64,000 nt of DNA from Escherichia coli (GTDB lineage: Bacteria > Pseudomonadota > Gammaproteobacteria > Enterobacterales > Enterobacteriaceae). Each line of letters starts with the position of its first letter. Position 1 is the stretch's first letter. Location of the stretch: the NCBI RefSeq assembly GCF_003334305.1, contig NZ_QOWS01000004.1. One strand, written 5' to 3'. The translations under genes and the position numbers were made by a program. Shown here in pieces: positions 59,126 to 59,809 of the stretch. The notes beneath the pieces were generated by a model. The model was not told the origin of the DNA. It saw only the letters and a program-made list of their open reading frames with translations, and did not search any database.

Positions 59126-59296
59126 CGGACTACCTCAAAATAAAGCTTTATATACGAATGATTGTTTCATACTCCAGGAAGACGGTAAACCACTCTCTGC
59201 AGGGCATTACACACTAATAACAATTGAATAACTCACAGTTATGTGCAGAGTTATAAACAGAGGAAGGGGTGGATAGCCGTTTTTATTCACCTTTTC

Positions 59297-59621
59297 TGTG
59301 GATAGAGTTGTGAAGAACTACGGAATTACTACGGGAAAACCCGGAGCATTCTGAATAAGCCCGATATAGACATTTTAAAATATTCATTATTAGTCAATGC
59401 ATTACATGTAATTTGAGTAATGAAAAAGAGTAATTCGTGACCCAGGTCACACCTCTCATTTACGGGTTGGCGAAAGATCAACCAATGCCGTATTTATCCA
59501 CAGAATGTGCCACTAAGTTAAGCACTGAACCACTAAAAACTGGAGTTTCGTCGCACGTCAAGGCTGTAAATGGAAACAGTAGTGGAGGTTTTTCACAGTT
59601 ATCCCAGCTTTCTGTGGATAA
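59297..59621. promoter_or_regulatory. DnaA-box cluster in the rppH/mutH divergent spacer (DARS2-type DnaA-reactivating sequence)
   Basis: 9-mers matching the DnaA box TTATCCACA: tgtggatag (59297-59305, 8/9, reverse), ttatccaca (59494-59502, perfect) and tgtggataa (59613-59621, perfect, reverse). A degenerate ttatcccag (59599-59607) lies head-to-head with the last box, 5 bp away. The 684-bp ORF-poor spacer is AT-rich. Confidence 0.7.
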
Positions 59622-59809
59622 CATGGTGTAAGATCCTGTTTATTTTCAGTGACCAGATTTGGAAAACCTATTGCAGTGTTGCGCAACTCGATTACCGGCA
59701 GCCTAAAAAGCAATATAAATCAGAGAATTGAACAACACATGTGGAAAAAGTTACACTGCGAATATTCGGCACATAATTGCTGTTTGTTTTTTAACCAAGG
59801 TATCATGAC

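Follow-up and report, generated by a model that had tools for sequence, protein, structure and literature searches.

The spacer of 684 base pairs (bp) between rppH and mutH in the Escherichia coli genome considered here almost certainly holds DARS2, the second DnaA-reactivating sequence (DARS) of the E. coli chromosome. The spacer lies in a stretch of 64,000 nucleotides (contig NZ_QOWS01000004.1 of assembly GCF_003334305.1), which we refer to at its full length as the window. DARS2 is among the four extrinsic regulators of the ATP/ADP cycle of DnaA, by which the timing of E. coli chromosome replication is set. Its identification in the window is carried by sequence identity, the anatomy of the sites, an enrichment of DnaA boxes, and the conservation of both sequence and spacing across genera, all of which are observed, and no evidence contradicts it. 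DARS2 is a known and intensively studied element, and its recognition from raw sequence, as made in an initial annotation of the window, is correct and adds nothing to the field. The published functional model of the element rests on its left 233 bp, while selection appears equally strong on a right-hand block, to which we return below.

Identification of DARS2 in the rppH–mutH spacer

The limits of the spacer follow from the two gene starts. The gene rppH occupies 58595-59125 on the minus strand, with a GTG start at 59125, and mutH occupies 59810-60499 on the plus strand, with an ATG start at 59810, which places the spacer at 59126-59809 and bears out the length given in the initial annotation. 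Local gene order is that of the E. coli chromosome (ptsP, rppH, spacer, mutH, ygdQ, and ygdR), and the published location of DARS2 is upstream of mutH (PMC11317965). The AT-rich setting was likewise described correctly, the spacer having 38.9% G+C against 51.6% for the window. RefSeq annotates a single feature inside the spacer, the 48-codon open reading frame (ORF) ygdT.

DARS2 was mapped base for base by means of the primer and oligonucleotide sequences published in the supplement of Kasho 2014 (PMC4245941) and in Frimodt-Møller 2015 (PMC4585315). Every one of these maps uniquely within the spacer with zero to two mismatches, and those used for the 455-bp DARS2 fragment, the core deletion, the minimal fragment, and the substitutions of boxes IV, V, and VI do so with zero or one. 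The right end of the minimal active fragment falls at 59492. Compared with MG1655, 677 of the 684 spacer positions match, leaving seven single-base differences; within the 455-bp fragment the match is 450 of 455, and DnaA boxes I-VI, the 21-mer that carries Fis sites FBS2-3, and the 13-mers of the IHF sites IBS1 and IBS2 are the same as in MG1655. The spacer is 100% identical to that of many E. coli genomes and was found in 5425 of 5426 complete genomes. An entry labelled E. coli DH5alpha (NZ_CP026085.1, 4.83 Mb) carries a spacer 100% identical to that of the window, from which MG1655 differs at seven positions, and its label looks doubtful.

Anatomy of the element

The core comprises three DnaA boxes (Table 1) and reads, along the plus strand, TTATTCACC, TTTTC, TGTGGATAG, AGT, TGTGAAGAA. 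Box I thus faces the opposite way from boxes II and III, with gaps of 5 bp and 3 bp, an arrangement that has been described for DARS cores (PMC6868365, PMC5742627). When the window was scored for triads of this geometry, the DARS2 core was the best match, with 3 mismatches. The initial annotation had taken a head-to-head pair at 59599-59621 as the signature of the element. The 5-bp gap and the orientation of that pair stand, as does the locus, but its left box is weak rather than near-perfect, because it has three mismatches to TTATCCACA, and the pair is box VI with a degenerate partner rather than the catalytic core. The head-to-head pair that releases ADP is that of box I and box II, at 59283-59305; of these, box II had been counted in the initial annotation simply as a near-perfect box.

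To the right of the core, the published IHF and Fis sites are all present at their published places. IBS1 and IBS2 each have one mismatch to TAANNNNTTGATW and are separated by 3 bp; a PciI site, used in the 2025 DARS2 protection assays, lies beside IBS2 at 59404-59409, and both the site and the 3-bp gap are as in the papers. The 21-mer contains a match to the Fis consensus with one mismatch (59476-59490), and its deletion abolishes DARS2 activity (PMC4245941). Box V follows directly as a perfect box. Together with the locus, the match to MG1655, and the primer mapping, these IHF sites, the Fis 21-mer, and box V bear out the identity proposed in the initial annotation. Two further named sites, box IV (PMC4245941) and Fis site FBS6, are dispensable in published assays.

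Table 1. Coordinates of DARS2 and of neighbouring features in the rppH–mutH spacer (positions in the window).
Feature	Position	Strand	Remarks
Probable rppH promoter, TTTACC-17 bp-AACAAT	59189-59161	-	Predicted; identical and at the same position in 8/8 genera
DARS2, published 455-bp fragment	59260-59714		End primers MutH-4 (59260-59278) and MutH-2 (59696-59714)
DARS2 core	59283-59317	+	Matches exactly what the published core deletion removes (primers MutH-14/MutH-15)
DnaA box I, TTATTCACC	59283-59291	+	Core
DnaA box II, CTATCCACA	59297-59305	-	Core; 5 bp from box I
DnaA box III, TTCTTCACA	59309-59317	-	Core; 3 bp from box II
DnaA box IV, TTATTCAGA	59350-59358	-	Substitution primers Ksh-30/31
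IHF sites IBS1 (59376-59388) and IBS2 (59392-59404)	59376-59404		Published IBS1-2 oligonucleotide
CRP-type palindrome, ttCGTGAcccaggTCACAcct	59434-59454		Overlaps Fis site FBS1 (59428-59442)
Critical 21-mer with Fis sites FBS2-3	59472-59492		Bounded by primers MutH-17 and MutH-11
Annotated ORF ygdT, 48 amino acids	59478-59624	-	RefSeq; inside DARS2, spanning boxes V to VI
DnaA box V, perfect TTATCCACA	59494-59502	+	Negative-feedback site; primers Ksh-32/33
Right-half conserved block (122 bp)	59536-59657		80.3% of columns invariant in 8 genera
LexA-type box, GGCTGTAAATGGAAACAGTA, CTGT-N8-ACAG	59562-59581		Pattern at 59564-59579
Right DnaA triad	59599-59633	+	Core geometry (+, 5 bp, -, 3 bp, -), same strand as core
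Weak DnaA box, TTATCCCAG	59599-59607	+	3 mismatches; followed by 5-bp gap CTTTC
DnaA box VI, TTATCCACA (plus strand TGTGGATAA)	59613-59621	-	Primers Ksh-34/35
Weak DnaA box, TCTTACACC (plus strand GGTGTAAGA)	59625-59633	-	3 mismatches; 3 bp from box VI
Fis site FBS6 region	59662-59692		Oligonucleotide FIS-4U; 2 strain differences
Probable mutH promoter, TTGAAC-18 bp-TACACT	59728-59757	+	Predicted by weight-matrix scan

Enrichment of DnaA boxes

Perfect TTATCCACA boxes occur only twice in the window, at 59494-59502 (+) and 59613-59621 (-), and both are in the spacer, which also holds two boxes with one mismatch, at 59297-59305 (-, CTATCCACA) and 59740-59748 (-, TTTTCCACA). The two perfect and two near-perfect boxes counted in the initial annotation are therefore all real. 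As a null model we used 2000 dinucleotide-preserving shuffles of the spacer itself. Against the four boxes with at most one mismatch to TTATCCACA, the shuffles have a mean of 0.24 and none reaches four; against the ten sites with at most one mismatch to TTWTNCACA, their mean is 2.4 and none reaches ten. A sliding 455-bp scan of the window peaks at DARS2 with nine sites, while all other windows below 43% G+C have at most two. The cluster is thus real and far beyond chance, and the objection that the boxes might be no denser here than in surrounding DNA, which the initial annotation itself had named as grounds for refutation, decisively fails. Outside the published DARS2 is the near-perfect box at 59740, positioned between the -35 and -10 elements of the probable mutH promoter; among the eight genera compared below it occurs in E. 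coli and Citrobacter braakii only.

Working model of DARS2 function

The biochemistry of DARS2 at this locus would be that described for MG1655. According to this published and established work, ADP-DnaA would assemble on core boxes I-III. There, a head-to-head contact between the AAA+ domains (Gln208) of the protomers on boxes I and II would lead to the release of ADP, and box III would stabilise the oligomer. The resulting apo-DnaA would leave and bind ATP, which would regenerate initiation-competent ATP-DnaA. The core would be weak on its own; IHF at IBS1-2, whose binding is stabilised by negative supercoiling, would be required to bend or loop the DNA, and such looping would allow Fis at FBS2-3 to contact the core complex, with Fis confining DARS2 activity to exponential growth. 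Once ATP-DnaA is abundant, it would oligomerise from box V over low-affinity sites and evict Fis, switching DARS2 off in a negative feedback. For this last step, displacement of Fis by ATP-DnaA assembling from box V and a negative role for box V and its low-affinity neighbours have been reported (PMC8682772), and the step at which IHF is released from DARS2 was called totally unknown in a 2023 review (PMC10380432). Deletion and substitution phenotypes as well as reconstitution in vitro have been published (PMC4245941, PMC8682772, PMC11724364, PMC4585315); in MG1655, ADP is released from ADP-DnaA in vitro in a manner that depends on IHF and Fis, and deletion of the core leads to less ATP-DnaA, a lower origin-to-mass ratio, and asynchronous initiation.

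Several points qualify this account. The fragment in the window carries five strain-specific single-base changes relative to MG1655 (59391, which falls in the 3 bp that separate IBS1 from IBS2, 59415, 59669, 59670, and 59701), none of which falls within a named DnaA box or the 21-mer. Cells deleted for DARS2 are viable, and those without any of the four extrinsic DnaA regulators are nearly normal (PMC4585315, PMC11331064); the element fine-tunes initiation and is not essential. Finally, the strongest conservation and the strongest chromatin immunoprecipitation (ChIP) signal both lie in the right half of the element, which is dispensable on plasmids, and neither is explained by the published model.

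Conservation across Enterobacteriaceae

The spacer was aligned among E. coli, Salmonella, C. braakii, Kluyvera, two Klebsiella lineages, Enterobacter cancerogenus, and Pseudenterobacter, counted here as eight genera. This comparison set, gathered through MutH homologues and exact-protein look-ups, consists entirely of Enterobacteriaceae. Spacer length is 682-684 bp in every genus, with no insertion or deletion between 59199 and 59809 (610 bp); by contrast, the length of the mutH–ygdQ spacer varies between 62 and 181 bp where ygdQ is present. The Enterobacter cancerogenus-like contig and Pseudenterobacter both lack ygdQ (TerC family) between mutH and ygdR, and in the former rppH (787-1251 of that contig) is called 22 codons short (154 amino acids vs 176).

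Four-fold degenerate sites of mutH served as a neutral baseline and are saturated, with 3.9% of them invariant and a mean pairwise identity of 0.45, whereas 83% of mutH second codon positions are invariant. Against this background the spacer is a series of conserved blocks joined by linkers substituted to saturation (0-12% invariant columns). The core block is 79% invariant, with boxes I, II, and III each keeping eight of nine positions, and the block of FBS2-3 and box V (59466-59505) is 67.5% invariant, with box V unchanged throughout. IBS2 is kept as WTTCATnnnnTTA. Spacing is preserved as strictly: in all eight genera, IBS2, box V, and box VI lie 96, 197, and 316 bp from box II. No conservation is seen for box IV (0 of 9 columns invariant), FBS6, a box-like site at 59268, or the near-perfect box at 59740. 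Polymorphisms among six diverse E. coli strains follow the same pattern, falling in the linkers and almost never in the blocks.

Beyond the family, MutH representatives at 50% identity (from Thorsellia, Succinivibrionaceae, and metagenome proteins) have lost the adjacency of rppH and mutH in all three cases examined, and in Thorsellia, the one genome scanned outside the family, there is no DARS-like triad near mutH. A MutH fragment of 69% identity (P0127), considered as a distant relative, turned out to be Klebsiella-like.

A further conserved block lies at 59214-59260, immediately outside the published left boundary of DARS2. It includes an invariant inverted repeat with a variable loop (ATAACTC-N13-GAGTTAT, 59228-59254) and an invariant DnaA-box-like sequence, TTATAAACA, at 59251-59259.

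A conserved right half with a second triad

The largest conserved block of the spacer is at 59536-59657, in the right half of DARS2, and it has one variable column among the six diverse E. coli strains. Across the eight genera it reaches the level of invariance seen at mutH second codon positions (80% vs 83%). Its conservation is established within one family, the Enterobacteriaceae. The block contains a second DnaA triad (the right triad), which scores 6 mismatches and is second only to the core among approximately 128,000 positions, the best triads of 20 shuffled windows having 7-9. Its geometry fits the DARS core type, yet its outer boxes carry three mismatches each, and these are conserved as weak boxes in the eight genera. 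Within the triad 88.6% of columns are invariant, and its distance from the core is exactly 316 bp, or some 30 helical turns, in all eight genera. A ChIP sequencing study of DnaA found three peaks across DARS2 (78-, 199-, and 213-fold), the strongest of which, along with a "double DnaA box", is at the right triad, with occupancy resolved at the level of the region (PMC11317965).

On plasmids, the right half can be deleted without loss of over-initiation activity, substitution of box VI leaves activity intact, and constructs that lack the core and retain the right triad are inactive (PMC4245941). The literature thus indicates that the right triad alone is not sufficient for DnaA reactivation.

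The block also contains a LexA-type box, which is separated from the triad on its right by 17 bp (59582-59598) and ends 228 bp before the mutH ATG. Among genera it varies only at central positions and in the A/C of its (A/C)CAG half. An identical 20-mer in Salmonella also ends 228 bp before the mutH ATG, and because this position agrees, we take it to be the published putative SOS box of Salmonella mutH, which has a borderline heterology index of 12.99; mutH was induced 3.58-fold by nalidixic acid (Mérida-Floriano et al., PMC8072944). The LexA-type match by itself is at chance level, since the pattern CTGT-N8-(A/C)CAG occurs three times in the window.

A CRP-type palindrome (CGTGA-N6-TCACA) lies between the IHF sites and the Fis 21-mer. 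It keeps GTGA-N6-TCAC in all eight genera and overlaps FBS1, which fits the Fis consensus perfectly. For rppH/mutH, a 2026 preprint (PMC12871828) lists the 21 bp of this palindrome (59434-59454) as a CRP footprint obtained in vitro, and no role for it in DARS2 is described in the DARS2 literature that we searched.

For promoters, the site at 59728-59757 is the only sigma-70-like site on the plus strand whose place in the alignment does not change among the eight genera, and it is probably the promoter of mutH, as that at 59189-59161 probably is of rppH; both are predictions from sequence. A consensus scan of the spacer for promoters returned one site only, at 59750-59777. The two conserved sites differ from those proposed from genomic systematic evolution of ligands by exponential enrichment (PMC3946193). 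One proposal from that study, TTGACG-18-TTTAGT for rppH-ptsP, maps to 59561-59532, and its -10 element is not conserved in the other genera.

We infer that selection acts on the right half as strongly as on the core and, because the right half is so constrained, that it must do something. Tentatively, it might be a separate module, either a DnaA/LexA operator or distal promoter for mutH/rppH, or an ATP-DnaA sensor that times the release of IHF. As an operator, it would tie expression of mutH (or rppH) to replication status and DNA damage, similar to uvrBp3 at DARS1, the element in the bioD–uvrB spacer; it is the precedent of DARS1 and uvrBp3 that suggests either role. As a sensor, ATP-DnaA on the right half would time IHF release and shut DARS2 off. 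Should the sensor version hold, the acknowledged question of how DARS2 is turned off would have an answer; should it be a DnaA/LexA switch on mutH, mismatch repair would be connected with replication status and with the SOS response. This synthesis was not found in the DARS2 literature searched, nor are the conservation of the right half, its second triad phased at 316 bp, or the internal LexA-type and CRP sites discussed there, the founding paper (Fujimitsu 2009) lying outside that search. Pieces of it (box VI, the "double DnaA box", and the Salmonella SOS-box list) are scattered in the literature.

Alternative explanations

An AT-rich intergenic region might be expected to accumulate DnaA boxes by composition alone, and window-wide, one-mismatch boxes are only about twice their expected number. 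The chance that the cluster arose in this way is nonetheless negligible: composition-matched shuffles never equal the observed counts, other AT-rich windows fall far short of the DARS2 position, and the boxes are invariant across genera in which neutral sites are saturated. It is also most improbable that the conserved DNA encodes YgdT or an unannotated small RNA to which the DnaA boxes are incidental. RefSeq annotates ygdT in nearly all E. coli genomes, and a gene caller gives a 53-amino-acid ORF at the same place in Kluyvera; however, in four of the eight genera the ORF is damaged, its start codon being lost in Klebsiella and its length cut to 11-23 amino acids in three genera, and its variable columns show no codon-position bias (20, 19, and 16 at the three positions). 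We therefore reject ygdT as a coding gene and regard it as probably an annotation artefact. An RNA gene in the right block was likewise rejected. The block folds with mildly negative z-scores (-1.4 to -2.9), but there is no match to an Rfam family at E-values up to 1, consensus folding yields only hairpins formed by inverted DnaA boxes, and variation is too scant for a covariation test. Equally improbable is that the cluster acts as a sink like datA, titrating DnaA or stimulating the hydrolysis of ATP bound to it, which would be the opposite of reactivation. Such a sink would accord with a dense box cluster that has an IHF site, with very high DnaA ChIP occupancy comparable to that of datA and oriC, and with the negative action of box V and its low-affinity neighbours (PMC8682772). 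Yet datA is another locus, near yjeV, glyVXY, and queG; the head-to-head geometry of boxes I and II is the signature of a DARS and not of datA; deletion of the DARS2 core lowers ATP-DnaA and the origin-to-mass ratio; and published assays show nucleotide exchange rather than ATP hydrolysis.

A further possibility, which we consider open to doubt, is that the boxes, or the right triad, are transcription operators through which DnaA, possibly with LexA and CRP, regulates mutH and/or rppH. This competes with DARS2 only as a sole explanation, and not as an added function of the right half; as a sole explanation it is excluded by the direct biochemistry and genetics of DARS2. As an added function it draws on several observations. 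The MG1655 DARS1 core, which coincides with uvrBp3, agrees with the true DARS2 core at 24 of 35 positions in an ungapped alignment and with the right triad at 25 of 35, so that the right triad is the closer of the two. The promoter uvrBp3 fully overlaps DARS1 and is repressed by DnaA and LexA (PMC6015884); LexA binds the mutH promoter in Vibrio parahaemolyticus (PMC3323433); and loss of DARS2 by deletion alters the proteome also under slow growth, a condition in which the element is taken to be inactive (PMC12371093). The LexA-type box beside the triad with its Salmonella counterpart, the ChIP peak at the triad, and the invariance of a block that plasmid assays call dispensable point in the same direction. 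What stands against an operator is that no positionally conserved sigma-70-like promoter of at least 6 bits is present inside the block, and that the conserved promoter candidates each lie over 70 bp away from the block and at least about 95 bp away from the triad. The lack of such a promoter is only weak evidence, since the documented uvrBp3 itself reaches no more than 4.4 bits on that scale. The borderline heterology index of the LexA-type box and the recurrence of its pattern in the window also count against an operator. Moreover, mutH is not known to belong to the classical LexA regulon of E. coli.

Comparison with known systems

The element in the window agrees with DARS2 of E. coli K-12 (Fujimitsu 2009; Kasho 2014; Miyoshi 2021; Kasho 2025) in its locus and flanking genes. 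DARS1 shares with it a three-box core of identical geometry, a position upstream of a DNA-repair gene, and LexA-type boxes nearby. It differs in being only 101 bp long, in having no need of IHF or Fis, and in being weaker in vivo; box II is a perfect box in DARS1 and has one mismatch in DARS2. In addition, the DARS1 core doubles as the documented promoter uvrBp3, whereas DARS2 is without a demonstrated promoter.

Like DARS2, datA is a non-coding cluster of DnaA boxes with an essential IHF site, at which IHF binding is timed by the cell cycle and sensitive to supercoiling. Unlike DARS2, it promotes the hydrolysis of DnaA-bound ATP, its boxes support head-to-tail oligomers of ATP-DnaA, it has no Fis requirement, and it lies at another chromosomal position among different genes. 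The DnaA-oligomerisation region of oriC also combines high- and low-affinity boxes with IHF and Fis sites, and there ATP-DnaA spreads cooperatively to low-affinity sites from an anchor of high affinity, as it does from box V of DARS2. No unwinding element has been described for DARS2 (13-mers were not scanned for), and its spacer holds only two GATC sites, in contrast to oriC. The two regions also differ in their output, which is the unwinding of DNA at oriC and nucleotide exchange on DnaA at DARS2.

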